From Vampirovibrio sp. (GTDB lineage Bacteria > Cyanobacteriota > Vampirovibrionia > Vampirovibrionales > JAJTHC01), in the NCBI GenBank assembly GCA_050916035.1, contig CP050876.1:608635-672634 (forward strand): a stretch of 64,000 nt of DNA. Reading direction: 5' to 3'. How positions within the stretch are numbered: position 1 is the first letter of the stretch; each line of letters starts with the position of its first letter. Under the pieces are notes generated by a model. That model saw nothing but the letters and a program-made list of their open reading frames with translations, made no database searches and had not been told where the DNA came from. Position numbers and translations under genes: made by a program. Below are positions 8,909 through 59,600 of this stretch, piece after piece.

Positions 8909-11900
8909 ATGAAAAAAGCCTTTTCTATTGGCGTGATCCGTTTATGGAGGATCTTTTGGCATCTTCCTAAAGGCGTTTTGGTGACTTTGGGAGTCTGGTT
9001 GGGACTGGTGGCTTTTGTGAATGTCGGCTTGCTTTTTTGGGATCCCCTTCCTGTGGCGCTGCCTGTTTTGAATCAATGGTTCGAGCAGAAACATCAGTCT
9101 CATCTTGAACTACAGGGCTTGCGGGTATTTGTTTTGCCGTGGGGAACGGTGTTAACCAAGGCACGGCAGCTAAAATGGCAGTCGACGACTCAGCAGGCCA
9201 AAGTGCCCAACTGGCAGATTCAGGCGGAAGGGGCAACGGTTCCTTTACATGTGTGGCGCTTTTTTTTAGGAGGCCCCACCGCCTTATTGGGGACCTTTCA
9301 CGTCAAGCAGGTCACGGCGAATAGTCAGGGGAATGAGGGGCTCCGCGCCTTTAAGTCGGTCTTAGATACCTTTAAATCCAAGCCTGAATCGAACCCTTCT
9401 CCCTTGGGGGAACATATTAAAGTTCATCTTGATGGGGCGACGGTTACGATTGAAGACTTAGCAGGGAATCGTTTGCTTCGTCCGAATACTTACGAACTGG
9501 GGCTTGAAAAAACGGAGGTCAATTGGCATCGAACGCCTCAACGGCTTCGTGTGGGTATGCAGCATTGGCGGGTGAAGACGCCTGATGCTCAACGGGCTTT
9601 TTCTGTGGGTAAGCCTGCCGTGTTTCGAACCCTTGTATCGGGAACGGCGAAGGGTGACTTGTATTTAGGACCGTGGATTAAAGCGTTTCATGTGGAAGCG
9701 CATCGCCCCCCTGATGCCTCACTTTTTTGGAAGGCCTTACATGAATCAGGTTGGTTGGACGTGTCGCTTAACACGGGGGCGTGGTCTTCTCTCTTCGTTA
9801 AAAAACCGCTTCTTGCATCTCCGTACATTCAGCCTGCTTTACGGATGAGTTGGCGTGGGAGCCCCTTATTTTATGAGTCTGCGTTAGCCATAGAAGGGCA
9901 TTTGATGCCTCAAAAAGAGGCCCATCTACAGGTGCTCGCTCAGTGGATGCCTCCTGCAAAGGGTACGCCTTTAGGGGGATTACAGTTGACCAAAATACAG
10001 TTGACGCACCCTCAAGGGGCCTTGTCTTTAAACGGAAATATAGCGCCACAGTGGACGAATCCAACCCCTTTGAAAGAAGCCTTTAAACGTTTAGCATGGC
10101 AGTTGAGCGGAAATTTTGACTTGCAAGCCCAGTCTACTTTAAACGCTTTGCAGAAGGAATTGGCGCGTCAAGGATTAAGCTGGCAGGCAGGGCATTTGCA
10201 GGCCAAGCTGGATTTAAAAGGCCTTGGGGTACAGGCGTCCACCTCTCAAATGAAGTTTAAAACGGTGGAACCCTTACAGGTTGTTTTTTCAAAAGCCATT
10301 CGTATGGGAACCGTTACCTTTCCTAAGGCCACGCAAGTGCAGGGGTTGGAGGTGGAAGGGGATGTGACGCCTGAGCAGGTGGCGTGGCGTCAGGCGAAAA
10401 CGGATTTACGCGTGGCGATGGATGCTCCCCCTGTTCGATTGAATTCAGAAGGGGTCTTTCATTTTAAAAATCAAACGATTCATCTACAAGCGGATTCTCC
10501 TGTATTGACGGCCCCTCACTTGTCTGCCTTTTTAAGACGCAACCCTCACTTGGTCCCCCCCCCCTACTTTGCCTTATTGGCCCAGCCTTCATGGAAGGGG
10601 GGCGCCTTTCAACCTCATTATCAGCAAGACACGGCAAAAGATACCTTGTTGCTTCATACCGATATTAAAGCGATGTTTCCTCACCCTGAGCGAGGGGAGT
10701 CTTTGCCGTTGAAGCTTGAAGGACACCTTAAACTCTATAATACGCCGCAGGACCACCTTTTAGTGGTTGGGGACTCCCTTAAAGAGCAAATGGCTAAAAT
10801 TCAGGTGGGAAATCAAGCCCCTATAGAAGGCAATTACCTGATTCATCTTTTGAATGAGGCGCAAGAAATACGACTGCACTGTCCTTCCCAAGCCTTAGAA
10901 CCTGTATTGGCATGGGTAAATCACTTAGGGGTCACTTTGCCACAGGTGGCCAAGCCGAAAGATACCCTTGGGGTGAAGCACATCAAGCTCTTTCTAAACA
11001 AGACGACCCCTCGTTTACTGGAATTGAAGGAGGCGGTCTTGAATTTAGGAGAGCTGGGTCAGATGAAGGCCTCCGCCTTGTGTCAGTCGCAATGTGATTG
11101 GCAGAGCGATGGGCACTTGGATTTACCTCAGGTCTTTAAGCGATTAGGGGTATCCGTGCCGAAGGTGAGTGTATTAAAGGGGAAGGCCCATTGGCAGTTG
11201 CACGGTCAAAGCCATGCGCAAAAAGGGACGCTACAGGCCTTGTTGGGGGATCTACAAGTCGATGATCTTCGTTTGCGTTATCTTCAGCATCCGCAATTGA
11301 TTCAAAGTCCGCGAATTGCTTTGCACGCCAAGGGGTCTTCATGGTTGCTGGATCCAAACATCTTAGATTGGGGGCCCTTTCATGCCACTTTTCAAGGACA
11401 AGGCACGCAGGGGATTGGGGCGGGCCACTCGTCTCATTTGTCTTTGCGTTTAAAGTCTTTATTTTTAAAAAATATCTTTTTTACTCCTGGAGATGAAATG
11501 CAATTTGCCTTTCAGGATGCCACTGCGTATGAAACGCAGCAGGCTCAGCGTTGGCAAGCGTGGTGGAAGGGCTTAAAGGTTCAATTGCCTGAACGGGTGA
11601 ATCCAACGGGGCAGATGGATCTGGATCTCAGGCTGGATGACGGCAAGCCGACGGCTCAATTTGCTTTAAATCAGGTGGGGGGGTACTTCCCCACCTTGGC
11701 GCCTGAACCTTTTTCGCGGGTGACGGGCACCTTTGAATATGGTGAAGGCAACCGTATTCGTTTAACTGAAGCGGGTTTGAAGGGGTATTATGGACTGAGT
11801 CCGTGGGATGCGACGAACTTAAAAATGACGGCAACGCCTGCAGGGGTCGTGATAGATGGTCGCTTTGTCTTAGATTTACATCCACGGGAATTGAATCGTT

Positions 11901-19112: not shown

Positions 19113-20072
19113 TTAGTGGTGCGTTTCTACAAGTGCCAAGGCTTCTGGCCCTACTTTAAGTCCGAGATCGTGCTTGCTTTGTTGTAAGGCCGTTTCCGCT
19201 TCATTAAGAGAGGTTTTGGCTTCGTTGAGCATGTATTGCATCAGCTGTGTGGCGGTGATGTCTGTATTTGTATTGTTTGTTTGTGTGTTTTTACCTTTTT
19301 CTAGGGCGATTTTGTTTTGGGCCAGTTGGTAAGTGGCCTCTAAAATCTGATATTGACTGGCTTGTAAAGACAGACGATCTTCAGCGGCTTTATAGTTGAG
19401 ATAAAGCGTCAAGAGTTCTTGTTGCAAGGTGTCAACGGCACGCGCGAGAATCACCATGTCTGCATCCGTCACGGGTTTGGTGTTGGAGGTATTACTTTGG
19501 GCAATAATGTCATTGACTAAGGCACCCGACAATAAACCCATAGGGGTGCCTGTCATAATGGAGGTCGCCGCCCCGCCCACTTGTGCCAAACCATTGACGA
19601 CTTGCTTGGTACGACTTTTTTGACGACTCGGCTTGCCGCTGGCATCTTGGCGGCTGAGTTTTTCAATGGCATAGCGAATGGGTTGACTACGATAAACCGC
19701 GGCTTGCCAGAGCATGTTTAAATCTTGATTTTGCGTCTCCGCTGCATCTAAGGTGTTTTCTCGAATCCGTTGAGTGGAGGCCGTCCATTGTTGTTCGTGC
19801 TGAAGGAGCACCCGTTGTTGCGAAGGGGAAAGACTTTCCATAAAGGCGGTGACTTGCTGGTGATAGTGCCGCTCCAAATTCGTATAGGCATTTTCTTGGG
19901 ACGCCTTCTGTGAATCCGTCCATGCCGTATTCTTGGACTTCAACACATCTAATTGTTGGGGGGTCACGGGGGAGGCTTGCATAAGTGGCATGGAGCAAAG
20001 CACGCTGACGCCTAAAAAGAATAGACTCAGAAGAGGCGCCCCATAAAAACGAGGCGTGATGAAAGCGGTCAT
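19113..20072 (-). CDS. Secreted hypothetical protein, paralog B of a tandem pair (coiled coil plus glycine-zipper-like segment)
   Basis: 319 aa; signal peptide. Its core LWQAAVYRSQPIRYAIEKLS...GLAQVGGAATSIMTGTPMGLLSGAL aligns with the upstream paralog. Confidence 0.6.
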   Translation of the reverse strand: MTAFITPRFYGAPLLSLFFLGVSVLCSMPLMQASPVTPQQLDVLKSKNTAWTDSQKASQENAYTNLERHYHQQVTAFMESLSPSQQRVLLQHEQQWTASTQRIRENTLDAAETQNQDLNMLWQAAVYRSQPIRYAIEKLSRQDASGKPSRQKSRTKQVVNGLAQVGGAATSIMTGTPMGLLSGALVNDIIAQSNTSNTKPVTDADMVILARAVDTLQQELLTLYLNYKAAEDRLSLQASQYQILEATYQLAQNKIALEKGKNTQTNNTNTDITATQLMQYMLNEAKTSLNEAETALQQSKHDLGLKVGPEALALVETHH

Positions 20073-21244
20073 AAGGCAGCATCCTCCATTAAGGGGAGTG
20101 CAGGATTTTCCCCATTAGGCTGGCTTTGGGGCGACTTGGGGGGAGTCAAAACGCGAGGGGTTTCACTTTGAAAAACGCGTGATTGCGCGACTTCTTTTTT
20201 CACCACAGGGGTTTCTAGCACCACATGGGACGCGTGAGGACGAATCCCAATGGCGAGTGTGTCAACGGCATTGGCCCCTGCGATACGTTCTAGCTGAATA
20301 CGGGCGTCTTGGGCTTGGGTTTCCACTTTTTGTAACTGCGCGCGAAATTTATAATAACGCTGAATGGCTAAAAAACGCTGCGTGGGGTCATGGTCCGCTT
20401 GAAATTTTTGAAAATGCGCTTCTTCACGGGCTTGTTCATTTTGTAATTGATTCAGCATAATCAGGGCCGCTTGGTAACGGTGGTATTCTTCCACCAAACT
20501 TTCTTTTAAATCGTCAATTAAATAAGACAGTTGAATATGTTCCGTGGGACTTAAGTCACTAATGGGTTTGTTGCGCCCCATCACGAAATTTTGAGCCACT
20601 TGACTGCCGGTCATCACGCCCATGCTTTCATAGCCCCCAATGGGGGCCACGGTGCTGCTGGCCAAGGCGGCTCCTGTAATCAGGACACTCAGCGTTTTTC
20701 GTAAAAATTCGCTGGAATGGGTCATATGCCGTTCAGGAGGCAACGCAATCTTTTCCAAGGCAAAGCGCACGACTTCGTTACGTTCAATGGTGGCTTGCCA
20801 TAAATGCTTTAAATCTGCTTCCGCCACTTCGTTTTGAAGTTGAATTAAGGTGACACTGGCCCCTAAGGCCTCTGCGTCTTTAATGGTTTTAACCGAAAGG
20901 CGGGGAACTAAGGCGATATTGGCTTGGGGCGCACGGCGTAAGGCATCCAAACTTTGAGGGGGGGACACGCCGTCTAGGGTGACGACGTCTTCTTTTTCGG
21001 TGGACGGCCACCCCAATGAGCCAGCAGTGGCTTTTGCGGAGGGGACCACAATTTTGTCATACGGGGTGAGCAAGGCGGGGACAAAGCTTAGGCGCGTTTT
21101 TGGGGGACTTGTGGGTTTGAAGAGGCGTGCTTCTAAAGGTGGGGGAGATAGACTCAAAAGCAGGACAAGGCCAAGCAACACGACAGGCCAAGGCCACGCG
21201 TGAACCGGAAAGACTTCAAAAGCAGGACAACTGATTTTCTTCAT
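20069..21244 (-). CDS. Secreted hypothetical protein, paralog A of a tandem pair
   Basis: 391 aa; signal peptide. Its core LWQATIERNEVVRFALEKIA...ITGAALASSTVAPIGGYESMGVMTGSQV aligns with the downstream paralog. Overlaps that gene by 4 nt. Confidence 0.6.
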   Translation of the reverse strand: MKKISCPAFEVFPVHAWPWPVVLLGLVLLLSLSPPPLEARLFKPTSPPKTRLSFVPALLTPYDKIVVPSAKATAGSLGWPSTEKEDVVTLDGVSPPQSLDALRRAPQANIALVPRLSVKTIKDAEALGASVTLIQLQNEVAEADLKHLWQATIERNEVVRFALEKIALPPERHMTHSSEFLRKTLSVLITGAALASSTVAPIGGYESMGVMTGSQVAQNFVMGRNKPISDLSPTEHIQLSYLIDDLKESLVEEYHRYQAALIMLNQLQNEQAREEAHFQKFQADHDPTQRFLAIQRYYKFRAQLQKVETQAQDARIQLERIAGANAVDTLAIGIRPHASHVVLETPVVKKEVAQSRVFQSETPRVLTPPKSPQSQPNGENPALPLMEDAAL

Positions 21245-36457: not shown

Positions 36458-36539
36458 CGGATGAGACAGGATTCGAACCTGCAACCCCTCACGGGGCGAC
36501 CGCTTTCGAGACGGCACCCTAACCACCCGGACCTCATCC
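36458..36539 (-). tRNA. tRNA-Ser (anticodon CGA) with a long variable arm
   Basis: Reverse complement GGATGAG...CTCGAAA anticodon loop...GGTTCGAATCC T-loop...CTCATCCG. Cloverleaf folded by eye; no encoded CCA. Confidence 0.7.
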
Positions 36540-36809
36540 GTATTGCTTCATTTTACCGCATCCAGCGGAGATGACAAGCTTCACTCTAGAATATTCTAGT
36601 ATTTTTGCCTAAAACCTGAGACCTTTAATCCTGTGCACCAACCGACGTCAACGCACTAAATGCGAGGCTTCCGAGACATTTTGCGGACGTCGTGGTTGTG
36701 AATGATGCGAGGAGGTGGGGATTGAGGGGGGATTTTCAAGGGGGGACGAAGGGGAGGAGAAACGCAATGCGTCCTACCCCGTCCCCCCTTGAACGGATTT
36801 AGAGGGGTG

Positions 36810-36835
36810 GAGACCTTTTTCCGCGAAAAGGTCTC
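36810..36835. terminator. Perfect 10-bp-stem hairpin (GAGACCTTTT-TCCGCG-AAAAGGTCTC); possible bidirectional terminator downstream of the repeat-protein gene
   Basis: Palindrome seen directly in the sequence. No strong U-tract, so terminator function is uncertain. Confidence 0.35.
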
Positions 36836-36901
36836 TGACGAGCGACCAGCTCAAAACGAAAGCCAGCCCTCCAAAAATTGATCTATCAAACACGATAGAA
36901 A

Positions 36902-38926
36902 TTAGCTGTTCGCCACGGCCTTCATTTGATTAATCCCGTGTTGTGCTTGGGCCATATCTCGTTCATCTTTATTGGTGAGCCCCAGTTGTTTAAAGCCCCA
37001 ATCGGTTATGCCTGAAGTCGCAGGCGTTAAGCCCATGCCAATAATTCCTGCAATGGCCATGGCGGGGAGGGTCCCTACCCCACTGAAAAAGGCTGCGGTG
37101 AGTGCGGTTGCGGCAATTCCCGTGATAACGGTTGTAGCCAGATCCGACGCGGCTTTTCGATGGTTACCATTATCCATATTGGTCTTAAAGTTCCAAGCTT
37201 CTAAGGCGGTGCCCACAATGGCCAAGCCCTTGGTGAATTTACCGCCAATGCCTCCCATATTGCGTGAAACAGAATTTTTCGCTTTAGAGGCAAGCGTGCT
37301 ATCTAAAACGTCTGTGGCAGCTCCTGTAGTAGCTCCTGTAGTAGCTCCTGTAGTAGCTCCTGTAGTAGCTCCTGTAGTAGTTCCTGTAGTAGTTCCTGTG
37401 GTAGCTCCTGTAGTAGCTCCTGTAGTAGCTCCTGTAGTAGCTCCTGTAGTAGCTCCTGTAGTAGCTCCTGTAGTAGCTCCTGTAGTAGTTCCTGTAGTAG
37501 TTCCTGTAGTAGTTCCTGTAGTAGTTCCTGTGGTAGCTCCTGTAGTAGTTCCTGTGGTAGCTCCTGTAGTAGTTCCTGTGGTAGCTCCTGTAGTAGTTCC
37601 TGTGGCAGCTCCTGTAGTAGCTCCTGTGGTTTTATTTAAAGGCCCTGCAATATTTTTGGCGGTGGTGAGGCCTGCGGCTTGAATTTTATTCTGCTCTAAA
37701 ATGTTTTGAATATTTTGACGCAGTACGGCTTCATCTCCTCCACTCAGGGATTGAAGTTGTCTCACTTGTTCGGCGCTTAAGCCTAAGTTTTGAAATTTTT
37801 TGTCAAAGAGCATGGCCGTGGCTTTTTCATCGCTAAACCCATTCCATAATTTTTGCCACCAATTGGGCTTAGTGGTTTTAAGATCACTGACCAATTGATC
37901 CATATTCGCGACTTTATTGGTGTGGGCACTAATGAATTGTGCATTCTTTTTGTTTAAACGGGCAAAGTGTTTTTCTTGTGCGTCTAATAAGCCTTGGTTT
38001 TTAGTCAGGCGTGCTTCTTGTGCGGCAATTTTTTCAGGACTACTACCATTGGCGTTTAAACGGGCAAGTTCCGCTTCGTCTATTTTGACGATGCGCTTCA
38101 TTTGAGCCGTCCCCTTGGCCGATTCTTCTAAGCGAACTTGGTCTAATTCCATATATTGTTTTTGGAGTTCTTGTATTTTTTGAGACAACTGCGCTTTCGT
38201 CGTACTGGGATTCGCTTTTAAGGCGTCTAATTCTTTGACTTTTTTACCATAAATTTCTGCTTGCTGGGTGACGCGTCCTGTGACTTCACGGTCAATGGTG
38301 GAATCTCCAAAGGTGCCTGCTCCACGGTAATGGGTACTACGGTCACTGATGAAATTATGCCATTTGCCTTTTCTTAGGGCATATTGATCCACGAGCCCTT
38401 CCGCGTTGACCGTCGGCAATTCGGTTTTAAAGAGCGGTACATTTTTCCCTAAGGGTGCTTTGCTACTACGTGCTGATATTTCCAAATCTTTAAACGCATT
38501 TTTTTTAGTGGTATACGGCTTGCCGTCTGCGTCGAGTAAAACCCCGCCATTTTTACGCGCCGTTTCTGTCATAATTTGGCGTCCTTTTTGGCCGTCTTTT
38601 GCAAAGAAAAAGGTGTCGTGATCTTTGACGTCCATCCAATTGCCAATGGGTTTAAACGTGCGATGGATGAGATTAGCGGAACGGTCTTGGTCTTGTACAA
38701 TATTTTGCCCTTGTAAAAGAGCCAAGGGAAGGGGCAAGGCACTCATGCCGGCTTCTACTTTTTTGCTATTGAGTGTGTTCAATAAGCCCGTAGCCACCAG
38801 CACGGCGGCTTCTTCTCTCGTAAAGGCAAGGGCTGCGGGCGCTAAGTTAGACCCCATTGATTGTTGGGGTTGCTGGGGTTGTGCTGCCGTATTATAAGGA
38901 GTATTGGATGCTGAAAGACTACTCAT
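36902..38926 (-). CDS. Hypothetical 674-aa protein with about 27 tandem Thr-Thr-Gly-Ala/Thr repeats and a C-terminal bilobed hydrophobic domain
   Basis: The repeat is encoded by a 12-bp unit (CTCCTGTAGTAG on the + strand) over about 37313-37640. N-terminal coiled coils. C-terminus VITGIAATALTAAFFSGVG...LPAMAIAGIIGMGL. Confidence 0.65.
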   Translation of the reverse strand: MSSLSASNTPYNTAAQPQQPQQSMGSNLAPAALAFTREEAAVLVATGLLNTLNSKKVEAGMSALPLPLALLQGQNIVQDQDRSANLIHRTFKPIGNWMDVKDHDTFFFAKDGQKGRQIMTETARKNGGVLLDADGKPYTTKKNAFKDLEISARSSKAPLGKNVPLFKTELPTVNAEGLVDQYALRKGKWHNFISDRSTHYRGAGTFGDSTIDREVTGRVTQQAEIYGKKVKELDALKANPSTTKAQLSQKIQELQKQYMELDQVRLEESAKGTAQMKRIVKIDEAELARLNANGSSPEKIAAQEARLTKNQGLLDAQEKHFARLNKKNAQFISAHTNKVANMDQLVSDLKTTKPNWWQKLWNGFSDEKATAMLFDKKFQNLGLSAEQVRQLQSLSGGDEAVLRQNIQNILEQNKIQAAGLTTAKNIAGPLNKTTGATTGAATGTTTGATTGTTTGATTGTTTGATTGTTTGTTTGTTTGTTTGATTGATTGATTGATTGATTGATTGATTGTTTGTTTGATTGATTGATTGATTGAATDVLDSTLASKAKNSVSRNMGGIGGKFTKGLAIVGTALEAWNFKTNMDNGNHRKAASDLATTVITGIAATALTAAFFSGVGTLPAMAIAGIIGMGLTPATSGITDWGFKQLGLTNKDERDMAQAQHGINQMKAVANS
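37313..37640. repeat. Tandem 12-bp repeat array (about 27 units of CTCCTGTAGTAG/TTCCTGTAGTAG/CTCCTGTGGTAG) inside the CDS
   Basis: Directly visible periodicity. In frame; encodes the (TTGA/TTGT)n region. Confidence 0.9.
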
Positions 38927-39079
38927 ACAGGGGGACCCTAACTTGAATTTTGTGTTGAACCTATGTCACTAAAAAGATGTCGTATCAGCATAAAACCCAA
39001 GTGGCTAAACTTTTGTGCGTGTGAGGAAAGAAACCCCTGAATAAAAAATGCCTTCTCCTGTCAAAAGAGAAGGCATAAA

Positions 39080-39151
39080 CTGGGGTAGAAGGATTCGAAC
39101 CTCCGGATGCCTGGACCAAAACCAGGTGCCTTACCGCTTGGCGATACCCCA
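39080..39151 (-). tRNA. tRNA-Gln (anticodon TTG)
   Basis: Reverse complement TGGGGTATCGCCAAGCGGTAAGGCACCTGGTTTTGGTCCAGGCATCCGGAGGTTCGAATCCTTCTACCCCAG. Near-identical in its 5' half to E. coli tRNA-Gln(UUG). Confidence 0.85.
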
Positions 39152-39330
39152 ACAACTTCTAATGTACGATGAACAGAGCGGGGAGTCAACCCAATTTCGC
39201 ATAAATCCCTTAGTCAAATGAAAGCCCATTGTAACGGATACTTGCAATTTAAATATGTTTAAGGCACACTTTTAAACTGTAAGAGTCGTTAGGCTTTCAA
39301 CATACTCAATATGATATAAGGATTTTATTC

Positions 39331-50856: not shown

Positions 50857-51261
50857 CTACCAGCGACCACCGCCGCCACCACCGCCGTAACCGCCGCCGC
50901 CAGAGCGACCGCCACCACCACCGCCGCCGTAACCGCCGCCGCCACCAGAGCGACCGCCGCCACCGCCGCCGCCGCCACGGTAGCCACCGCCACCGCCACC
51001 GCCGCCAACTGGGCGAGCTTCACGAGGGCGAGCTTCGTTTACACGTAAGACTTTACCATTCATGTCAAAACCATCTAAACGCTCAATGGCAACTTTGGCT
51101 TCTTCGTCATTGTCCATTTCGACAAAGGCGAATCCACGCGAACGTCCTGTTTCACGATCGATAACAATACGGCAGGATTGAACCTCACCAGCATCTACAA
51201 ATAAGGCCAACAATTCATCATCGCTCGCAGAAAAAGGCACGTTGCCCACATATAATTTCAT
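50857..51261 (-). CDS. Glycine-rich RNA-binding protein (single RRM plus GGY/RGG tail)
   Basis: RNP-2 LYVGNV and RNP-1 RGFAFVEM; C-terminal GGGGGGYRGGGGGG repeats. Confidence 0.85.
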   Translation of the reverse strand: MKLYVGNVPFSASDDELLALFVDAGEVQSCRIVIDRETGRSRGFAFVEMDNDEEAKVAIERLDGFDMNGKVLRVNEARPREARPVGGGGGGGGYRGGGGGGGGRSGGGGGYGGGGGGGRSGGGGYGGGGGGGRW

Positions 51262-51545
51262 AATCAAAAGTTCCTAAATAATAAAGTCTCGCCAACAGAG
51301 TAAAACATTTTTTCGCGACTGGCGAAATTATCGCAAAAAAATGGGAAGCTTTTAAAAAATCAAAACGTCGAAACCGAAAACTTCTGAACTCTTTACTACC
51401 AAAAATGCGAGGCATCTTTATCACAAACACTGAATAGGAACATCGAAGGTTCTTCAAAAAAGGGCTTTGGAAAGATCAAAACACTGGTATTTCGAGGCAA
51501 GGGTCAAAGCGAAAACACGTCTGATTTACTCGTTCATACGATGTA

Positions 51546-51989
51546 AGCTTCCCCTTAAAAAATGGTGGAGTCGGAGGGAATCGAACCCTCGTCCAAAACG
51601 ATTGCCTCCAAGCTTCTACGAGCGTAGGTCTCTTCAAATTTTCGTTTCACTGTAGTCATGTACCCTGATTCACAGTGAACTTTAACCCGTTTTACGTCCG
51701 TGTTCAGACGTATAGACGATACACTGTACAGAAAAAGTCTATAAGTCTTTCTGCATGGTCATGCGAATTAACAAGCCCACCTTAGCAGCATGATAGCTTG
51801 TGTGGGGGATAAAGTTACTTAACTGGTAAGGAACTAAGCAGCTAGCTGCTTACGACCAAATAATTGAACAACATTATCAGCAGTTTGAGTTTCTGCATTT
51901 ATTGTTTTGCTCAGGATTAACGAGGATTAAGCGTCCTCGGCTCGCCACTCAGTCACAAGAATTCGTCCTGTCAAGTCCAGAACGACCCC
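51546..51989 (-). ncRNA. ssrA: tmRNA (SsrA), one-piece; predicted tag AETQTADNVVQLFGRKQLAA
   Basis: On the minus strand. The 5' end GGGGTCGTTCTGGACTTGACAGG resembles the canonical GGGGCTGATTCTGGATTCGACGGG. The 3' end is GGACGAGGGTTCGATTCCCTCCGACTCCACCA. The tag reading frame runs GCAGAAACT...AAGCAGCTAGCTGCTTAG. Boundaries are approximate. Confidence 0.8.
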
Positions 51990-52167: not shown

Positions 52168-53379
52168 TTAAACGTGCAATAGTTGTAACAATAAGTGGGC
52201 GATGTCATGGGTAGCTCTGGGTTTGGCCAATTGGCTTAAGGCTTTTTTCATTTGAGCCCTTTGGGCTTGATTCTGGCGTAGACTTTGAAGCGTGGCCACC
52301 AAGCGAGTGGCGCTTAAATCCTCTTCAGCCAAGAGGATCCCCGCCCCTTGTGCTTCCACAAAGCGCGCATTGGCGTCTTGATGGTTTTGAGCCGCATAGG
52401 GAAAAGGAACTAAAATGGCGGGGGTTTGGCTACTAAACAGTTCAGACAAGGTCATGGAACCCGCCCGACAGACTGCGACATCCGCAAGGGCCCACAGCGC
52501 AGGCATTTGCTCCACAAAGGGAAGGCAGACATAAGACGCGGGAAAGGGTGATTCTGTGGCGTATCGAGCCAATAACGCCGATTTCATCGTGGCGTGATGC
52601 TTCACCCCACATTGATGCACGATTTTAAAGCCCGCTTCTACCAAAGGGCTTAAGGCATCTACCATGGTTTCATTGAGCCTTAAAGCGCCTTGAGACCCCC
52701 CAATGACCACGAGGATTTCATCGCTCGCGCTCCAGCCCATGGGTAAAATAGGTCCCAATGCCTCCAAGGACTCTGTTTTGCTGATCGACCCCATGCGGTG
52801 GTCGACGGGGTTACCCGTGTGATAAAAGCGAGCTTCGGCGACGTTTAGGGCTCGGCCTATTTCAGGGAATGCCCCTGTGACTTTGGTGGCTTTGGGCGCC
52901 ATGAGACGGTTGACGAGGCCTGGGGTGGCGTCACTTTCATGCACTATAAAGGGAATTTTTAAGATAAAGGCCGCTAGTAAGACGGGGCCTGCCACATAGC
53001 CCCCTGTACCTAAAACCGCTTTGGCGTCTAGACTTTTGAGGTAACGCATGGCCAGAATGGTGGCTTGAAACATTTCAACGGCCCAGCGCATCAGCACAAT
53101 CGGGTTTTTGCGCCGAGGCATCCCATGGCTGACCAAGGGTAAAAAGGGGATGCCTCTGGTGGGGACTTTTTGAGCCTCTAGACTATCTTCATTGCCAATA
53201 TAGGTAATTTGCTGGAGTGAAATGCCAAATTCACGCACCAATGCATCCGCCACGGCCAAGGCAGGGTAAAGATGCCCCCCTGTGCCTCCCCCTGTTAGAA
53301 CAATTGAAGCGTTCGCGTGTTTCACATGGCAATCCTTATCTTTCAGCGATGCGCTTATCGCCCCATCGCCAAACGGCAT
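52168..53379 (-). CDS. murG: UDP-N-acetylglucosamine--N-acetylmuramyl-(pentapeptide) pyrophosphoryl-undecaprenol N-acetylglucosamine transferase
   Basis: VLTGGGTGGHLYPALAVADAL N-terminal motif; GT28 fold, about 360-400 aa. Confidence 0.85.
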   Translation of the reverse strand: MPFGDGAISASLKDKDCHVKHANASIVLTGGGTGGHLYPALAVADALVREFGISLQQITYIGNEDSLEAQKVPTRGIPFLPLVSHGMPRRKNPIVLMRWAVEMFQATILAMRYLKSLDAKAVLGTGGYVAGPVLLAAFILKIPFIVHESDATPGLVNRLMAPKATKVTGAFPEIGRALNVAEARFYHTGNPVDHRMGSISKTESLEALGPILPMGWSASDEILVVIGGSQGALRLNETMVDALSPLVEAGFKIVHQCGVKHHATMKSALLARYATESPFPASYVCLPFVEQMPALWALADVAVCRAGSMTLSELFSSQTPAILVPFPYAAQNHQDANARFVEAQGAGILLAEEDLSATRLVATLQSLRQNQAQRAQMKKALSQLAKPRATHDIAHLLLQLLHV

Positions 53380-53446
53380 ATCGTTTAGTATAAGAGATGC
53401 CGTCGACTTAGGCTAGCTTGTCTGATTCTTTTTTTTGGGAAAAAGT

Positions 53447-55546
53447 TTAGTCTTCTAAATTAATAGAGGCCACGGCTTGCACCTTCACATCGGGGATGAG
53501 TTCACTATAGGCCAAGACCACCGTGTGGGGCAGGTGGCGATCTAGCAATTCAAAGAGCGGTAAACGAATGCGTGGGGAACATAAAATGACAGGGGGCTTG
53601 CCGTAATGCTGTTGAACCATGCGAGTGGTGTCACTAATGGCTTGAATCAGTTGTTGGACTTGCATAGGGTTCAATAAAAACATGACCCCTAATTCGGTGC
53701 GTTGGCAGGCTTCATCCAAAACCGTTTCCCATTCATTCGACAAAGTCGCCGCCAGTAACTGCTTGTTTTTATCGGCATGAGAAATACAGATTTGACGCCC
53801 CATGGCCGCGCGTAGGCGTTCAGACAGCGTGTCGGATTCTCGGCTAAAGCGGGCGTAGTCACTCAGGCGTTCAAAAATAAATTGAATGTCTTTAATCGAG
53901 ACTTTTTCTCGAATGAGGTTGACGAAAATTTTACGTAAGTCGTTGGGCGTCAGCATATTGGGGACAAGTTCTTGAATGACGCTGGGGTCACTGCCTCGCA
54001 TCAGTTCCATGAGTTTAAGCACGTCAATTTTGGTCATGACGTCATCCACATATTTAATCACGATGCTTTGTAAGTGAGTAATGACGGCATCGGTGGATTC
54101 AACGGCAACCGTTTGTAGTTGTTCTGGAATATCGGGTTGTGCCACCCATAAGGCGGGTACATTTAAGGTGGCATCCGTGCCTTGAATCACTTGGGCAGGG
54201 GGTGCGACGCTATAGGTGTCAAAATAACTTTGTAGAATCATGTAATAGCCTGGGTAGACTTTCCCTGTGGCCACGGGGTTCCCTCGAATAGAAACGAGGT
54301 ATTCATAGGGTTCAATATCGGAGGAATCCATAATACGGATATTGGGGAGAATAAAGCCGAGTTCATCGGTCAATCGGGTCCGTAAGCCTGCGATTTTACC
54401 CAAAAGCTGGCCGTCTTGTTCAGGGTCTGCAATCTGAAGGAGGCTCGCGCCCACTTGAAGACTGAGGACATCCACACCCATGCGTTCATACATGCGATTG
54501 GGGTCAATCATTTGTTGCATGTTTTCTTGTACTTCTTGTAATTCACCCATTTGTTGTTGAACGTCAGTGGTAATGAAGACGCTAAAGGCCATGCCGCCTA
54601 AAATTAAGGCAAATAAAACAAAGGGCCACCAGCTGAGTCCTGTAATGGAAGAGGTCACGGCGATAAACATTAAAAATAAGGCGGCAAAAATAAGGCCATA
54701 GGGTTTGCCTCTAAACTGAGTGAAGAAATCTTTAGCAAGACTATCAGACACACTGGTGGTACGGGTCAGGGTGATCCCAATGGCCACGGACATAATGAGC
54801 GCGGGAATTTGAGAGGCCAGTCCATCCCCGATCGTCAGAATCGTATACTTGTTGACGGCTTCCATAATGGGTAGGCCCTTCATTAAGACCCCAATGGCAA
54901 TCCCTCCGACAATGTTGATAATGGTGATGATGATCGCGGCAATGGAGTCCCCTTTGACGAACTTCATCGCACCGTCCATCGAACCGAGCAGGGACATTTC
55001 TCGCTGTAAGTTTTCGCGCAGTTGACGGGCTTGATCTGGCCCAATAAACCCTGCGTTTAAGTCTCCATCAATTTGCATTTGTCGCCCCCCCAAGGAGTCC
55101 AAGGCAAATCGGGCCCCTACTTCGGCCACCCGTTCCGACCCTTTGGTAATAACCATAAAGTTCACCACCAGAATGATTAAAAACAAAATAACCCCAACCA
55201 CCATATTACCCCCTGTAACGAAGACCCCAAAGGCTTCAACCATGGCCCCTGCATGACCATTGGCCAAAACAGCACGCGTGGTGGCAATCCCTAGGGACAA
55301 ACGAAACAAGGTGGACACCAAAATCAAAGACGGAATAGCCGCTAAATCTAAGGGCTGTTTGACGTAAAGGGACATCATGAGTAGGACAACGGCCAGACTA
55401 ATGTTAAAGGCGATAGAGGCGTCAATAAACCAGTCGGGCAACGGCACCAAAATAATTAAGATGAGCAATAAGACCCCAAAAACGAGTAAAATCTCACTAA
55501 TGGGCGGAATGGCAAAGGCATTGTTAGCAGGGGCGGCCATCATCAT
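53447..55546 (-). CDS. flhA: Flagellar-type III secretion export gate FlhA (FHIPEP family)
   Basis: Near-collinear similarity to E. coli FlhA across the TM and FHIPEP region (NFMVITKGSERVAEVGARFALD, DADLNAG, SMDGA.KFV.GD, LTIGDGL.SQIPAL). Confidence 0.85.
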   Translation of the reverse strand: MMMAAPANNAFAIPPISEILLVFGVLLLILIILVPLPDWFIDASIAFNISLAVVLLMMSLYVKQPLDLAAIPSLILVSTLFRLSLGIATTRAVLANGHAGAMVEAFGVFVTGGNMVVGVILFLIILVVNFMVITKGSERVAEVGARFALDSLGGRQMQIDGDLNAGFIGPDQARQLRENLQREMSLLGSMDGAMKFVKGDSIAAIIITIINIVGGIAIGVLMKGLPIMEAVNKYTILTIGDGLASQIPALIMSVAIGITLTRTTSVSDSLAKDFFTQFRGKPYGLIFAALFLMFIAVTSSITGLSWWPFVLFALILGGMAFSVFITTDVQQQMGELQEVQENMQQMIDPNRMYERMGVDVLSLQVGASLLQIADPEQDGQLLGKIAGLRTRLTDELGFILPNIRIMDSSDIEPYEYLVSIRGNPVATGKVYPGYYMILQSYFDTYSVAPPAQVIQGTDATLNVPALWVAQPDIPEQLQTVAVESTDAVITHLQSIVIKYVDDVMTKIDVLKLMELMRGSDPSVIQELVPNMLTPNDLRKIFVNLIREKVSIKDIQFIFERLSDYARFSRESDTLSERLRAAMGRQICISHADKNKQLLAATLSNEWETVLDEACQRTELGVMFLLNPMQVQQLIQAISDTTRMVQQHYGKPPVILCSPRIRLPLFELLDRHLPHTVVLAYSELIPDVKVQAVASINLED

Positions 55547-55624
55547 GGGGGTAGGGGGCTCTTTCTGGGGGAGGGGCGTTCTGGTCGTGTTAGATAGGGA
55601 ATAAACAGGGGGGCTTCGGTGTCT

Positions 55625-56569
55625 TTAGGGGGCATCAAAGGCGGGTGCTTCCCACGCGTCTGTCGGGGCATGTTCTCCTTCGAGTAGGTGGTCAAACTCC
55701 GCTTTGGCGTTGGATTGTGACGCAATGGCCACGTTTGGTAATCCTAGAATTTTTCGTATCATATGCAGTTGAGTATGAAAGCTTGCATCAATCTGTCCAC
55801 CAGAGGTTTCGACAATGCAGCTGCCTTCATCCACGTCGGCATCACCCACCACTATTATATGCCGTTGGACTTCGCCTTGCCACGTTTCTTCATGGTCTTT
55901 GATGTGTTGACGCAACAGTTTTACATCATGTGGATGAACTTTAAAGACGACTTCTTTTTGGGTGCGGTCGACTTTTCCTAAAACATCTAAGGCAATGCCG
56001 ACCACTAAGGCGCGATCACAAGACACTTCTACCTTAATGAGTCGTTGTGCAATGGCCATGGCCATGGGAACGATGTCTTGTACCGATTTTTCTAAGACTT
56101 GGTTTTTAATGGTTTCTAACTGATCCAAAATCTGCCAAATTTCTTCAGAGGCTTGATGGGCTTCCTTCATGCCTTCTGCATGCCCCGCTTCATAGCCGTG
56201 TTGATACCCTTCGCTTTGCGCTTGAGTAAAGCCTTCTTGTCTTCCCGCTTGTATGCCTTGGGCATGGCCTTCTTCATAGGCTTGCTGGAAAATGGCTTGT
56301 GGGTCCACGGGAGGTTCATGATCACTACGCCGCCGCTTCGGTTCCCCGCCTTCTGCTGTGGTAGGTGGAGTCGTGTGAGGTGCTTCCGTCCAAATGAGTT
56401 GGTTGACAAAATCATCTTGCCCGTCCTGAGCCAAGGGGGAGGGATGAGGATGCTGTCCGCCTCCCGTGATGTGTTCAAGCCAAGGGGGCAGGGCTTGGCC
56501 GTCCTGAGTGTTGGGGCGAGCAGTTGGGGTCGCGGGTTTTCGTGAACGAACGTTTTTAATGAGGGGCAT
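55625..56569 (-). CDS. fliH: FliH-like flagellar export ATPase regulator (FliH/SctL family)
   Basis: N-terminal GxxxG repeat region (AYEEGHAQGIQAGRQEGFTQAQSEGYQHGYEAGHAEG). C-terminus GSCIVETSGGQIDASFHTQL matches the FliH C-terminal GGCxxET..G.IDAS motif. Confidence 0.7.
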   Translation of the reverse strand: MPLIKNVRSRKPATPTARPNTQDGQALPPWLEHITGGGQHPHPSPLAQDGQDDFVNQLIWTEAPHTTPPTTAEGGEPKRRRSDHEPPVDPQAIFQQAYEEGHAQGIQAGRQEGFTQAQSEGYQHGYEAGHAEGMKEAHQASEEIWQILDQLETIKNQVLEKSVQDIVPMAMAIAQRLIKVEVSCDRALVVGIALDVLGKVDRTQKEVVFKVHPHDVKLLRQHIKDHEETWQGEVQRHIIVVGDADVDEGSCIVETSGGQIDASFHTQLHMIRKILGLPNVAIASQSNAKAEFDHLLEGEHAPTDAWEAPAFDAP

Positions 56570-56627
56570 AGCAATGGCCTTGTGATTTTAGATACTTTTA
56601 GGTACTTCGTGTTTAAGTGCTTAGCAT

Positions 56628-57821
56628 TTAAATAAGTAGAATCTTTTGATAATAGCTTAGCATTGCTTCTTCCAAAGGAGTAGGCCATTGGGGAAGCTGT
56701 TCGTAGGCTTGGGGATGATTTTGGAGGCGGCCAGCGGTTTTAAAGAACCGCTGAAGCTTGGAGCGTTCTCCTGTGATTAAAGCTTCGAGTCTGTGGCGAT
56801 AGTCAGGGTTTGTAAAAATTTCAGTCATGGCGTTTCGTGTTCGTTGTTGTTGGGAGGCAGGGTCTTGTGCCACGTGTTGAATGGTTTGCTTAAAGGTGTT
56901 CAACTGGGCGAGAACAGCTTGCATCGGCAGTTCATTTGCGACATGGTCCACATCCATATAATATATAATTTGGTGAACCATTTCAGCAGGGAATTGTTGA
57001 AACCATTCTGCTTGAACCGCTTCGGATTGCGTACTTAAAAAAAGTCCGAGTGCGGCAAGTTTTAGGCGTATCCTTTCATGGTGAGGCGCTTCGTTTGATG
57101 AAAGGGTGTGTGCAGGGGCCAAGTCCACAGGGGGAAAGTCTTGCGAATGGGGGGTAGGATGAACCCTAGGCGCTAGGTCAGGGCTTTGATGAAGCACAGG
57201 GTCTTGTGTCGTCGTGTTGAGTGCGGGGGTATCCGTATGAGGGGCCTTATTTTGAAAGCGATTGCTTGGTGCTTCATGCGGTAGGGCTTCTGGTTCTATG
57301 GGTCCATGTAATTGTTCGTATTCGCCTAGGTAGTGATGCAAAGCACTGGCGACCATTTGTTCCATCCAGCCTTGCAGTTGCGCGTCACTAAATTGGACAT
57401 CGGGGGTTTCTTCTTGGCCCACAGTAGCAGAAACCAATTGCTTGGCATGGGCAAAGGCGTCTTGCGCCAAGCCTTGTAAAATAACCGATTTAGGTTCCCC
57501 TGTCACGCCTAAGGCTTGGGCTTTGATGCTGGCAAAAATAATGGCATGGGTAAAAAGGCCTAATACCTTATAACAATGATGAACATTAAAGGCTAAATAG
57601 ATCGCTTTAGGGTCATGCTGGGGTTGAAAACCGGGTTCCTGCTGAAGTAAGCTGACGGCAACTGCAATAAAATGTGCGGTAATATCGGTAGAGCGTTTAA
57701 TTTCATCTATTTTGAGTCCCGCTTGACTCAGGGCGTCGGTTACTTTTTCGGCAAATTCCACCGAAAGGGCTTCGGCGTTCATGTTAATAATAGCAGGATC
57801 AACAGGGGGGCGTTTAGCCAT
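56628..57821 (-). CDS. Hypothetical protein occupying the FliG position in the operon; only weak FliG middle-domain resemblance
   Basis: 397 aa. The segment PAEMVHQIIYYMDVDHVANEL is loosely similar to the FliG EHPQ block ([22 protein letters not shown]). Confidence 0.35.
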   Translation of the reverse strand: MAKRPPVDPAIINMNAEALSVEFAEKVTDALSQAGLKIDEIKRSTDITAHFIAVAVSLLQQEPGFQPQHDPKAIYLAFNVHHCYKVLGLFTHAIIFASIKAQALGVTGEPKSVILQGLAQDAFAHAKQLVSATVGQEETPDVQFSDAQLQGWMEQMVASALHHYLGEYEQLHGPIEPEALPHEAPSNRFQNKAPHTDTPALNTTTQDPVLHQSPDLAPRVHPTPHSQDFPPVDLAPAHTLSSNEAPHHERIRLKLAALGLFLSTQSEAVQAEWFQQFPAEMVHQIIYYMDVDHVANELPMQAVLAQLNTFKQTIQHVAQDPASQQQRTRNAMTEIFTNPDYRHRLEALITGERSKLQRFFKTAGRLQNHPQAYEQLPQWPTPLEEAMLSYYQKILLI

Positions 57822-57842
57822 GAGACAAGTTCCTTCAATGGC

Positions 57843-59600
57843 TTAGTCTGGCGCACTGAGCCATTGATTCAGGTTGATATCACGTGGACGAAGGGCAGGG
57901 CTTGCGTTTGAAGAAGGCTTCAGACTTTGATTAAGATCTTTTAAGGCGTCTTTTAATTTTTGCGCATTTTGTTGTTGTGTGCGCTCCAAGACTTGATGTT
58001 GTGCTTCTTGGGCTTGCATCAATTGTTGATTTAATTGTTGTTGATACTGTAAGTGGGTTTGCGTTTCTTCCGCATGCTGCCGTAATTGTTGAAGTTCACT
58101 AATCGCTGAATCTAAGGTTTCAGCCGTATTTTGGACTTTCCCACTACTGCCCATGAGCAGCATTAAGGCGACGGCCCCAATCACGGTAATGGCCATCCAA
58201 GGCAGCCATGTCATCACGCCTGCGGCGGCTTCAGGGCTTAAGCCGGGCATGAAAAAATTGGCGCTATTGACGGGGGCTTCAGGCAAGGGGTCTTCCCCTT
58301 CTAGCGGTTTAGGGTTTTCAAAATCCGTACGGGCCAAGCTCACGTGTTCAGGGTCTACTCGTGGACTAGCCGCACGAGCCACCAAGACTTGTAAATCTTC
58401 AGGAGGAATATTGGGATAAAATTCATCGTCAATGGTCACCGCAATGGACACGGCTTCTACCATGCCAGGGACACTGGTTTCTACCCATTGGGTATGGCCG
58501 TTTTGATAACTCACTTCCGTGCCTTCACGGACGTAGCCATCTTCTTCCTGACTTTGCGTCATTTGGCCAAGCCCTTCGACCGCTTGGCCAATGGCGACTT
58601 TACTGTCGAGTTCAGGGGGTAAAAAGCCTGAAACGGCTCCTCCTGATTTCATCCCTGAAGTCCCTGAATGACTGGCACCGCCTAAACTTTCTTGAAAGCG
58701 TTGTTTAGAGGCCACAACAGACTTACTGGGGTCATAATTTTGGACCATGGTTTCTTTGGGGGATTCTCTCAAAAAGGTTGAAACCGTCACCACATAATGG
58801 CCTTCTCCAATGAGTTTGTCTAATTGCGCTGAAATTTTTTGCTTCATATAAAAATCTTGATCGGCGGCCTTGTCTTGCAGTTCTAAGGCGGAGTCTAGCA
58901 CACTATTATAGGTATTGCCATTGGTGTCTGAAAGGGCCACATGCTTGGCTTCAAGTCCTTGTATCCCCCCTACCATCAGGTTAATAATGGCGCGGACCTT
59001 GTCGCGAGTGAGCCGTTCCCCTGGGGGCAAGGTCACTTGTACAGCGGCAGACGGGGGACGACGATCACTGGCAAACAGAGTGGGGTCGGGGACTGAAATT
59101 TTGACATGGGCATCTTCTACAGGAGGCATTTTTCGGATGATGCGGGCCAAATCGCCTTCTTGTCCTCGAATCAGTTTGATTTGCTTTTCTTCACGGCTGG
59201 CCATCATATCGCTGTTATCAAAGGCTTCCATCCCGAGTTTTCCATCCATTAACCCCGATTGAGCCAAGGTTAAAAGGGCTTGATCCCGATCATTTAAGGT
59301 CGCATCTTCCGCAAACATCAAGGAGACCTTCCCCCCTGTACCTGCTAAGGTATCGAGCCGAATATCCTGCCGAGAGAGTAAGGCTCTAATTTCAACGGCT
59401 TTGCCTGCGGCAATATCGGTGGCCAAGGGCAGCTGTTCTTCGGTCAGCACTTTCGCGCCTTCATCCACTTTGACTTCTTTTCCATTGCCACTGCCTGCGA
59501 CGGCCACGACAATAATGAGCACGATGAGCAGGACGACCCCTCCAATGACGGCATAGAGCATTTTTTTATTGTCGAGCAATGCTTGTAACTGTGGGGGCAC
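57843..59600 (-). CDS. fliF: Flagellar MS-ring protein FliF-like (YscJ/FliF family)
   Basis: 585 aa; N-terminal TM (LYAVIGGVVLLIVLIIVVAV), a YscJ/FliF-type periplasmic domain, a second TM near residue 470 and a C-terminal coiled coil. Confidence 0.7.
   Translation of the reverse strand: MPPQLQALLDNKKMLYAVIGGVVLLIVLIIVVAVAGSGNGKEVKVDEGAKVLTEEQLPLATDIAAGKAVEIRALLSRQDIRLDTLAGTGGKVSLMFAEDATLNDRDQALLTLAQSGLMDGKLGMEAFDNSDMMASREEKQIKLIRGQEGDLARIIRKMPPVEDAHVKISVPDPTLFASDRRPPSAAVQVTLPPGERLTRDKVRAIINLMVGGIQGLEAKHVALSDTNGNTYNSVLDSALELQDKAADQDFYMKQKISAQLDKLIGEGHYVVTVSTFLRESPKETMVQNYDPSKSVVASKQRFQESLGGASHSGTSGMKSGGAVSGFLPPELDSKVAIGQAVEGLGQMTQSQEEDGYVREGTEVSYQNGHTQWVETSVPGMVEAVSIAVTIDDEFYPNIPPEDLQVLVARAASPRVDPEHVSLARTDFENPKPLEGEDPLPEAPVNSANFFMPGLSPEAAAGVMTWLPWMAITVIGAVALMLLMGSSGKVQNTAETLDSAISELQQLRQHAEETQTHLQYQQQLNQQLMQAQEAQHQVLERTQQQNAQKLKDALKDLNQSLKPSSNASPALRPRDINLNQWLSAPD

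Follow-up and report, generated by a model that had tools for sequence, protein, structure and literature searches.

What kind of protein does the lone gene between two RNA genes of a Vampirovibrio genome encode, and did that gene arrive from outside? The locus lies in a 64,000-nucleotide stretch of contig CP050876.1 (Vampirovibrio sp., assembly GCA_050916035.1), hereafter the window, and its 674-residue product joins a helical N-terminal body to a two-lobed hydrophobic C-terminal hairpin through a long Thr/Gly spacer encoded by a 12-bp tandem repeat. A sequence-only reading of the window had proposed a horizontally acquired islet, flanked by transfer RNA (tRNA) genes, that encodes an effector-like membrane-inserting protein. 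The architecture proposed there is borne out by our analysis and the islet is not. The comparisons below identify the gene as a vertically inherited member of a small orphan family, and we read its product, with a probability of about 0.45, as a protein anchored by its hairpin in the cell's own cytoplasmic membrane, with the arm in the cytoplasm and an evolvable spacer.

An open reading frame (ORF) survey of positions 36458-39152 left one credible gene between the two RNA genes, the single 674-residue gene that had been described (Table 1). With shadows of the coding sequence (CDS) set aside, no other ORF of at least 60 residues was present between them, and a 236-residue plus-strand ORF (36972-37682) was rejected as a gene, being the mirror-image shadow of the repeat. 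Full-length homology searches were swamped by Thr/Gly low-complexity matches and were redone with the N-domain alone and with a repeat-free family alignment. The N-domain search recovered two 704-residue homologues, one of them from the same Vampirovibrionales metagenome-assembled genome (MAG) as locus L006. HMMER, run with a three-sequence profile against 1.84 billion cluster representatives, returned nine proteins at E <= 1e-3; a word-index search with cluster look-ups added a few further members, and two metagenome-contig scans contributed the L017 contig only. The exact window protein has no entry in this 1.84-billion-representative collection. Family members are annotated as 'hypothetical', except for P0038, whose label of 'response regulator of citrate/malate metabolism' is an evident misannotation. 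No significant match was found in Pfam for the query or nine family members, in NCBIfam for the query or among PDB sequences for the family profile, and PHROG and PADLOC gave no match. Full-length members share a polar N-terminus, a helical body of about 400 residues, a variable linker and a C-terminal module of about 140 residues, and every locus examined carries one copy of the gene per contig. By these searches the gene belongs to a small orphan family, so far seen only in Vampirovibrionales.

The C-terminal module contains the best-matching stretches of most HMMER matches. It is ordered as amphipathic helices, NMxNG(D/N)HRKAxxDLTT, the hairpin, DxG(F/I)K...GLTN(K/Q)xERD and a helical tail, with a consensus of RNxLGxxGKxTKGLAIVGTALExLNFxxNMxNG(D/N)HRKAxxDLTT, a hairpin of about 45-50 residues, DKGxKxxTGLTNKNERD and the tail. 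Thirteen positions are invariant in the alignments (K566, L575, E576, N583, G587, R590, K591, D595, L596, T598, D642, N652 and R656). The hairpin itself matches the two closely spaced hydrophobic segments that had been noticed at the C-terminus. It is the only long run in the protein with a 19-residue Kyte-Doolittle value of at least 1.0 (window starts 591-624), and its lobes are separated by GVGTLP; three isolated 19-residue windows near residues 28-59 barely reach 1.0-1.26. All full-length homologues keep the bilobed hydrophobic domain, and conserved basic residues lie on both sides of it (HRK before; K.K...K.ERD..K in the family consensus after). Summed free energies on the Hessa scale are +0.75 kcal/mol for lobe 1 and +3.9 kcal/mol for lobe 2 in the window protein, compared with a median of +0.7 and a range of -4.4 to +2.2 kcal/mol for transmembrane helices of the same organisms (n = 26, drawn from FlhA, FliF, MurJ, YidC, NuoH and DagK). 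A hydropathy scan found no signal peptide-like hydrophobic N-terminus.

Upstream of the spacer, the N-terminal body begins with 30 polar, uncharged residues, followed by a conserved motif, (F/V)A(F/L)xxxEAxVL, and by an alpha/beta region at residues ~90-190. The helical region at residues 217-431 carries RLTKNQ..L..Q..HF and TKPNWWQKLWNG, and further conserved motifs in this ~200-residue region are TKPNWWQK and HGFSKxQLKxIQ. An AlphaFold run on a three-sequence alignment gave a predicted local distance difference test score (pLDDT) of 35, and we used a run on a 14-sequence alignment, which gave pLDDT values of 70-92 for much of residues 90-430 and a predicted template modelling score of 0.54. 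Long helices are predicted at residues 217-238, 244-292 and 297-336, with further helices to residue 423, while residues 1-90 and the array have pLDDT values below 50. The description of the N-terminal half as rich in coiled coil therefore holds for the long helices at residues ~217-431 and not for residues 1-90, which are polar and of low confidence, or for the mixed alpha/beta residues 90-190. A Foldseek search of the model against the PDB returned generic helical bundles only, the best at E = 1.4; as no match fell below E = 1, the fold is not assignable.

The spacer is encoded by what is by far the strongest tandem array in the window. Tandem Repeats Finder scored it at 513, with a 12-bp period, 25.8 copies, 92% matches and no indels. 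In the reading frame of the gene it consists of 26 units of ACAGGA[G/A]CT[A/G]C[T/C], translated as TGAT, TGTT or TGAA across residues 434-537, one unit short of the roughly 27 near-perfect copies first counted. The spacer is 57% Thr, 25% Gly and 18% Ala. It has the unit structure of an in-frame variable-number tandem repeat (VNTR), with near-perfect units of a length that is a multiple of three, within a CDS (26 x 12 bp); the array is 312 bp of near-perfect sequence whose size may be wrong if the window derives from a short-read assembly. Two sub-threshold glycine-zipper matches in Pfam, PF13441 (17.8 bits, cut-off 28.9) and PF13436 (16.2 bits, cut-off 27), were rejected as array artefacts: they cover the Thr-Gly array (residues 435-513), not the hairpin, and are gone once the array is removed. 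The FliH and serine-rich matches of the full-length protein in NCBIfam were dismissed as artefacts of the same array.

Comparison with a sister population suggests that the array has changed. Contig L011, a 932-bp Joint Genome Institute metagenome contig found through the fragment P0027, spans the C-terminal module as well as the array, which in this population takes the form (TGTTT)6(TGAT)9, with six 15-bp and nine 12-bp units that make up 198 bp and 66 residues compared with 312 bp and 104 residues in the window; this is one comparison, L011 starts 15 bp before the array, and both array lengths are possibly assembly-limited. The 15-bp unit type is not present in the window array. The coding sequence flanking the array is 88% identical at the amino-acid level between the two, with 0.21 synonymous substitutions per site (dS). 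Because L011 and the window differ in unit type and length, the array appears, on this comparison, to have changed in both since the two populations split. The suggestion that linker length would vary between strains is thus supported by a single pair of arrays, each subject to the limit just given. As all units are multiples of three, slippage would alter length only and never the reading frame. The Thr-Gly array is found only in the window lineage; more distant homologues have a non-repetitive linker at the same position, which is the position that varies in length and composition across the alignments, and the linkers of several members are Thr-rich (TPTTPTTTTTT in P0028, ATSSTSPTP in P0026). 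A second, more degenerate coding tandem repeat lies at 50862-51006 of the window (periods 3/12/33/42, GGC/GGT-rich on the coding strand), within a 136-residue, probably Gly-rich ORF at 50857-51267 on the minus strand.

The family is also tied together by sequence outside the coding region. A bipartite element, GCACA(A/G)-N15-GGTTTTATGCTG, stands about 60-90 nucleotides before the start codon of family genes whose proteins share just 22-38% identity. The exact 12-mer occurs once, in the upstream position, in each of 15 family loci other than L017, where it is degenerate; the chance expectation is about 0.04 occurrences in the 314 kb of sequence examined. This conservation speaks strongly for a common origin of the family and for regulation dedicated to it, and the element is probably a promoter or regulator site. 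A terminator-like hairpin follows tRNA-Gln and separates the tRNA transcript from the gene, which must therefore have its own promoter. We considered two promoter classes for the element. A sigma-28 (FliA) promoter was rejected, as its TAAA and CGATAA positions are not the conserved ones. The SigF-type promoter of Synechocystis has the form TAGGC...GGGTAAG, in which GGGTAAG is the -12 box (PMC2532724). A promoter of this type is unsupported here: TGGTAAG occurs in only four lineages, and the -32 box is not conserved.

The same element precedes unrelated orphan ORFs, in which P/Y/G/S-rich N-termini go together with hydrophobic tail or hairpin segments. A second window instance, again GCACAA-N15-GGTTTTATGCTG, lies at ~2399-2430 on the minus strand, before the minus-strand ORFs 2036-2323 (95 residues, P/G/Y-rich, with a C-terminal hydrophobic tail) and 607-2001 (a 464-residue orphan). 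In L006 an instance at ~1008 on the minus strand stands before a 210-residue ORF (313-945, minus strand) with a P/Y-rich N-terminus and hydrophobic segments. Judged by the shared element and their polar N-termini, these ORFs may form a small co-regulated set.

We asked how the gene has been inherited by comparing its surroundings across the family (Table 1). In the window it sits among housekeeping genes: below it are the genes for ribosomal proteins L5, S8, L6 and L18, an M16 peptidase and a GHMP kinase that we take to be thrB, and above it is rpmF-plsX-fabH-fabD-fabG-fabF. PlsX, encoded 0.7 kb from the gene, is 98% identical in L005, a contig of a sister Vampirovibrionales MAG from Lake Mendota, and 82% identical in L006, from another Vampirovibrionales MAG. 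L005 has the same tRNA-Gln/gene arrangement. No empty site lacking the gene was seen in the two related genomes, of which only L005 is a close relative that spans it. In more distant genomes the family gene lies elsewhere, and the MAG of P0022 has a sigma factor and acs upstream of rpmF. The recurrent neighbours in other lineages make it likely that the ancestral position was next to tRNA-Cys and pheT and that the gene moved in some lineages. In L010, a run of N (~3000-3100; masked sequence or a scaffold gap) with a duplicated flank separates the upstream element from the homologue's start codon region and is an assembly artefact.

One of these loci adjoins a prophage-like block. In L007 the block lies at 1-9562 (T7-type terminase, amidase and tyrosine integrase) and abuts tRNA-Cys (9736-9808). 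L010 and L015 have the tRNA-Cys/gene pair without a prophage, which marks this tRNA-Cys as an integration site in the L007 lineage. On the same grounds we rejected the idea that the family is phage cargo, the L007 prophage lying beyond tRNA-Cys from the gene. No relatives were found in plasmid, phage or viral collections.

Of the two RNA flanks of the window gene, the tRNA-Gln(TTG) is secure, as the sequence-only reading had it. The proposed tRNA-Ser(CGA) fares less well: its anticodon loop does read CU-CGA-AA, its T-arm is good and its long variable arm carries a GNRA loop, but the D-arm is defective, the Rfam tRNA score is borderline (Table 1), and ARAGORN was negative on 36458-36539 at default, -ps and -ps90 settings and gave a misfolded structure at -ps80. 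It scores 34.1 bits on the Rfam tRNA-Sec model, above its tRNA score and below the cut-off of 47. The acceptor and T arms can be drawn as 7/5 or 8/4, the D-stem has at most 2-3 pairs, and there is one connector nucleotide. These features describe an aberrant type-II tRNA-like sequence rather than a confident tRNA-Ser, one that could be a degenerate tRNA-Ser or an allo-tRNA-like species.

A horizontally acquired, tRNA-flanked islet with an accessory gene would account for the tRNA and the tRNA-like sequence at its two ends, for a genomic position that differs between lineages, and for tRNA genes that adjoin the gene in several lineages, one of which (L007) has a prophage that uses the neighbouring tRNA-Cys. 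The composition of the gene is nonetheless native. Its GC content is 0.460 compared with 0.485 +/- 0.028 for the window genes, its GC content at third codon positions 0.443 compared with 0.469 +/- 0.049, and its codon distance 0.230 compared with 0.199 +/- 0.044, all within one standard deviation. There is no integrase or recombinase gene between the RNA genes, an absence already remarked on in the sequence-only reading, and the partial tRNA direct repeats sought at the edges come down to the 13-nucleotide T-arm consensus AGGATTCGAACCT of two different tRNA or tRNA-like genes, not an att-type repeat. Together with the same arrangement in the sister strain, the recurrent housekeeping synteny, the upstream element common to the lineages and the lack of mobile-element relatives, these results leave horizontal acquisition unsupported, and we regard it as extremely improbable. 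The housekeeping contexts, the recurrent tRNA-Cys/gene/pheT synteny, the upstream element, the native composition and the absence of mobile-element matches instead mark the gene, on present comparisons, as a vertically inherited chromosomal gene of the lineage, single-copy among core genes.

The family contexts also bear on a pore-forming toxin, bacteriocin or holin-like protein, in which the hairpin would form a channel in the manner of colicins and the N-terminal part would serve for targeting. The C-terminal module, with amphipathic helices around an Ala/Gly-rich helical hairpin and a long helical region upstream, has the look of such a protein. Colicin-type toxins differ from it in sequence and setting, however: none of nine members has a colicin, toxin or pore-domain match in Pfam, no small conserved gene that might confer immunity lies beside the gene in any context, and the family is not on plasmids or phages, the L007 gene being outside the prophage on the far side of tRNA-Cys. 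We hold a pore former to be very unlikely.

Sequence divergence shows how the gene has been constrained. For the N-domain compared with L005, nonsynonymous substitutions per site (dN) are 0.070, dS is 0.19 and their ratio (omega) is 0.36, with three in-frame indels of 21, 39 and 9 nucleotides; for the C-terminal module compared with L011, dN is 0.072, dS 0.21 and omega 0.34. The neighbouring plsX, compared with L005, has a dN of 0.006, a dS of 0.11 and an omega of 0.056. These values place the gene under purifying but relaxed selection.

We therefore weighed where such a protein would act. A location in the cell's own cytoplasmic membrane is favoured by base rates, by the behaviour of the gene as a single-copy core gene and by the lack of adjacent secretion or chaperone genes. 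The hairpin would insert into this membrane as a re-entrant, tail-anchor-like pair of helices with both ends in the cytoplasm, a topology suggested by the missing signal peptide and by the basic residues conserved before and after the hairpin. On this reading the flexible, unstructured spacer would tether the helical body to the membrane as an arm; spacer length would set the reach of the arm and would shift through replication slippage or unequal recombination with the frame always kept. The tail may do more than anchor passively: judging by the invariant polar residues that surround the hairpin, it would also dock to a membrane partner or oligomerise, and the family as a whole would be under dedicated regulation through the conserved upstream element.

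Several observations weigh against a cytoplasmic-membrane anchor with a cytoplasmic arm. The hairpin is marginally hydrophobic, with lobe 2 at +1.6 to +3.9 kcal/mol in the members in which it was resolved, and marginal hydrophobicity is also reported for exported, membrane-inserting effectors. The AlphaFold model places the whole C-terminal module at a pLDDT below 50. Among the first 30 residues, S/T/N/Q/P/G/Y make up 53-73% in 11 of 12 members (37% in P0028), compared with 27-47% in ten housekeeping proteins of the window, and charges number 0-3 in most members and 6 in three; such polar N-termini resemble unstructured export signals. The protein evolves about 10 times faster than its neighbours (dN about 11-fold over plsX), with in-frame indels, a pattern common in surface and host-interaction proteins. 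A linker rich in Thr is more characteristic of proteins outside the cytoplasm than of tethers within it, and assembly could have distorted the array length in the window and in L011 alike.

Much of this would suit a predation factor that is exported and inserts into membranes, comparable in function to Inc proteins, LegC effectors or translocators of type III secretion systems. The polar N-terminus would serve as a Sec-independent signal, the hairpin would insert into an algal or bacterial prey membrane with the body facing the prey cytosol, and spacer length would tune reach or evade recognition. Such a factor would explain the missing signal peptide, the polar, almost charge-free N-terminus of most family members, a hairpin less hydrophobic than most genuine transmembrane helices of the same organisms, Thr-rich linkers in three family members, and the fast evolution with in-frame indels. 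Flagellar type III export genes occur in the same window, and in the other ORFs behind the upstream element hydrophobic segments accompany an N-terminus rich in P, Y and G. All family members seen to date come from an order in which the single cultured member lives as an obligate predator and has a type IV secretion system (PMC4451040). Against export stand the absence of homology to any effector or translocator family (Pfam, NCBIfam, PDB sequences, Foldseek), the absence of adjacent chaperone or secretion genes in the six contexts seen, the single-copy, syntenic position among housekeeping genes, and the absence of a non-flagellar type III or a type IV secretion system from the sequence examined for the organism; base rates, too, favour an own-membrane protein. 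On balance we find export rather unlikely. The broader proposal that the element-linked ORFs and the family would together make up an 'Inc-like' effector repertoire of Sec-independent exported, membrane-inserting predator-prey proteins, with the array as its length- or antigenically variable part, is in our view unlikely.

We also compared the protein with the named effector classes. Chlamydial Inc proteins combine a bilobed hydrophobic domain of ~40-60 residues with coiled-coil or helical regions and no Sec signal peptide, and their genes are lineage-restricted, fast-evolving, chromosomal and scattered among housekeeping genes. Residues 593-645 form a bilobed domain of this kind, and the lineage restriction, fast evolution and lack of a Sec signal are also alike. 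However, the hairpin is usually near the N-terminus in Inc proteins and is near the C-terminus here, and neither the query nor nine members match IncA or any other Inc family in Pfam, even at E <= 1. Inc proteins are exported by a non-flagellar type III injectisome of a Chlamydiae host, whereas the only export genes seen in this Vampirovibrionales window are those of the flagellar FlhA, FliH and FliF, and export is at most a putative trait of the protein. Type III translocators (YopB/IpaB/SseC) gave no match in Pfam, NCBIfam or PDB sequences, and Foldseek reached no better than the E value given above. A small class II chaperone with tetratricopeptide repeats (TPR) and an injectisome operon would be expected beside a translocator gene; the neighbours here are thrB, the tRNA-like sequence, tRNA-Gln and rpmF-plsX, and those of the homologues are pheT, murJ, glyQ, tRNA-Cys and ahpC, with no class II chaperone. 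The large TPR protein (542-658 residues) two genes away in L001-L004 is not a class II chaperone. For the Legionella Dot/Icm effectors LegC2/LegC7 (NF043058), the protein scored 15.4 bits against a cut-off of 350, on a coiled-coil stretch, and does not belong to that family.

The Thr-rich linkers raise a different topology, in which an own-membrane protein would hold its helical body and Thr/Gly spacer outside the cytoplasm, for instance as part of an attachment or envelope structure. SepJ (FraG) offers the analogy, with a coiled-coil N-domain, a species-variable Pro/Ser/Thr-rich linker and a C-terminal membrane domain; the window protein has the same three-part order in the same phylum, and across the family it is the linker that varies. 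Linkers rich in Thr and variable in length typically serve as spacers outside the cytoplasm. SepJ, however, ends in a multi-spanning permease-like domain rather than a single hairpin, and no sequence similarity to it, or to SepJ-type domains in the Pfam search, was detected. To our knowledge Vampirovibrionales are unicellular, and SepJ comes from filamentous cyanobacteria. There is, moreover, no signal peptide or N-terminal transmembrane segment to translocate the ~590 N-terminal residues, and basic residues flank the hairpin on both sides. We hold an outward-facing arm to be decidedly unlikely.

Among other systems, the disordered-spacer tethers ZipA and TolA/TonB and the C-tail-anchored coiled-coil proteins ElaB/YqjD are alike in having a globular or helical domain tethered through a low-complexity spacer or a C-terminal anchor without a signal peptide. 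Their anchors are single helices, however, which in ZipA, TolA and TonB are mostly N-terminal, and their linkers are P/Q- or P/E/K-rich and not encoded by near-perfect tandem repeats; no homology was found. Streptococcal alpha C/Rib and mycoplasma Vlp proteins likewise have in-frame, near-identical units that change length without a frameshift, but they are surface antigens with much longer units, compared with four residues here. The length-polymorphic Thr-Gly run of Drosophila period is similar in composition only. As far as sequence or fold could test it, the protein thus belongs to none of the named families. The family and its upstream element are new, and the kinds of device that it would combine (a hairpin anchor, a spacer tether and an in-frame VNTR) are already known.

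Table 1. Features of the locus in window coordinates, followed by the gene order around homologues (L, loci; P, proteins)
Feature or locus	Position or protein	Strand	Evidence, remarks or gene order
CDS, 674 residues, member of the orphan Vampirovibrionales family	36902..38926	-	ORF call, homologues, alignments
N-terminal body, residues 1-433	37628..38926	-	Alignments, AlphaFold, composition
26 x 12-bp units, 104-residue Thr/Gly/Ala spacer	37316..37627	-	Tandem Repeats Finder, in-frame reading
Conserved C-terminal module, residues 538-674	36905..37315	-	Alignments; best-conserved part of the family
Two-lobed hydrophobic hairpin, residues 593-645: LATTVITGIAATALTAAFFSGVG - TLP - AMAIAGIIGMGLTPATSGI	36992..37150	-	Hydropathy, Hessa scale
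Bipartite upstream element GCACAA-N15-GGTTTTATGCTG (probable promoter or regulator site)	38986..39018	-	~60 nt before the start codon
Terminator-like hairpin, 12-bp stem and T-run	39048..39076	-	After tRNA-Gln
tRNA-Gln(TTG)	39079..39152	-	ARAGORN; Rfam 60.5 bits
Aberrant tRNA-like sequence	36458..36539	-	Rfam tRNA 29.5 bits, cut-off 29
Perfect hairpin GAGACCTTTTCGCGGAAAAAGGTCTC, 10-bp stem	36809..36837	-	Core of the ~78-bp downstream element
L007/L008	P0033		tRNA-Cys (-), gene (+), pheT (-); in L007 a prophage with integrase beyond tRNA-Cys
L010	P0032		Helicase, tRNA-Cys, gene
L015/L016	P0025		glyQ, tRNA-Cys, gene, pheT
L012-L014	P0041		murJ, gene, pheT
L001-L004	P0021/P0022		suf operon, ahpC, gene, hypothetical, TPR protein, nuo operon
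L017	P0030		Gene, tetR, resistance-nodulation-division (RND) efflux

Just downstream of the gene lies a ~78-bp element (36790-36880), which is present in one copy in the window and in 3.0 tandem copies with a period of 78 in L011 (657-886). No further copies were found elsewhere in the 64-kb window, and the element may mark a transcript end or be of the repetitive extragenic palindromic (REP) type. A perfect 14-nucleotide inverted repeat, TTCAAGGGGGGACG / CGTCCCCCCTTGAA, with a 31-nucleotide loop (36735-36793) lies within a G-rich intergenic stretch. The L011 contig stops inside the equivalent of this stretch, where only the first arm of the inverted repeat is visible.

Farther along the window, genes for the flagellar export and basal-body proteins FlhA, FliH and FliF (52168-59600, minus strand) lie 15-20 kb away and adjoin murG, with an unassigned 397-residue ORF in the FliG position; their presence suggests that the organism is probably flagellated. 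A transfer-messenger RNA lies at 51563-51989 (tag AETQTADNVVQLFGRKQLAA). Large ORFs that lack a Pfam match are at 8837-13648 (plus strand, 1603 residues), 2605-3765 (plus strand), 6269-7474 (minus strand) and 19113-21244 (minus strand). The second of these, of 386 residues, combines an acidic repeat with a hydrophobic, Gly-rich segment and a tail rich in Thr and Pro, and echoes the low-complexity style of the spacer protein. In L001-L004 the nuo operon (about 13-20 kb) reads nuoA-B-C-D-H-I-J-K-L and lacks E, F and G. This is the 11-subunit cyanobacterial type of arrangement, which fits the taxonomic assignment.

Vampirovibrionales are predatory, non-photosynthetic relatives of cyanobacteria whose lineage-specific proteins are barely known. 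The locus defines one such family: an orphan, order-restricted hairpin family with a dedicated upstream element and, in one lineage, a probably hypermutable in-frame spacer. By means of the upstream element a regulon can be delimited across complete genomes, and the array might be used to tell strains apart in metagenomic time series from lakes. Were the protein exported, it would open a first way into the means by which these predators manipulate the membranes of their prey; if it instead stays in the cell's own membrane, as we favour, the family would be a natural experiment on how spacer length affects a tethered domain.

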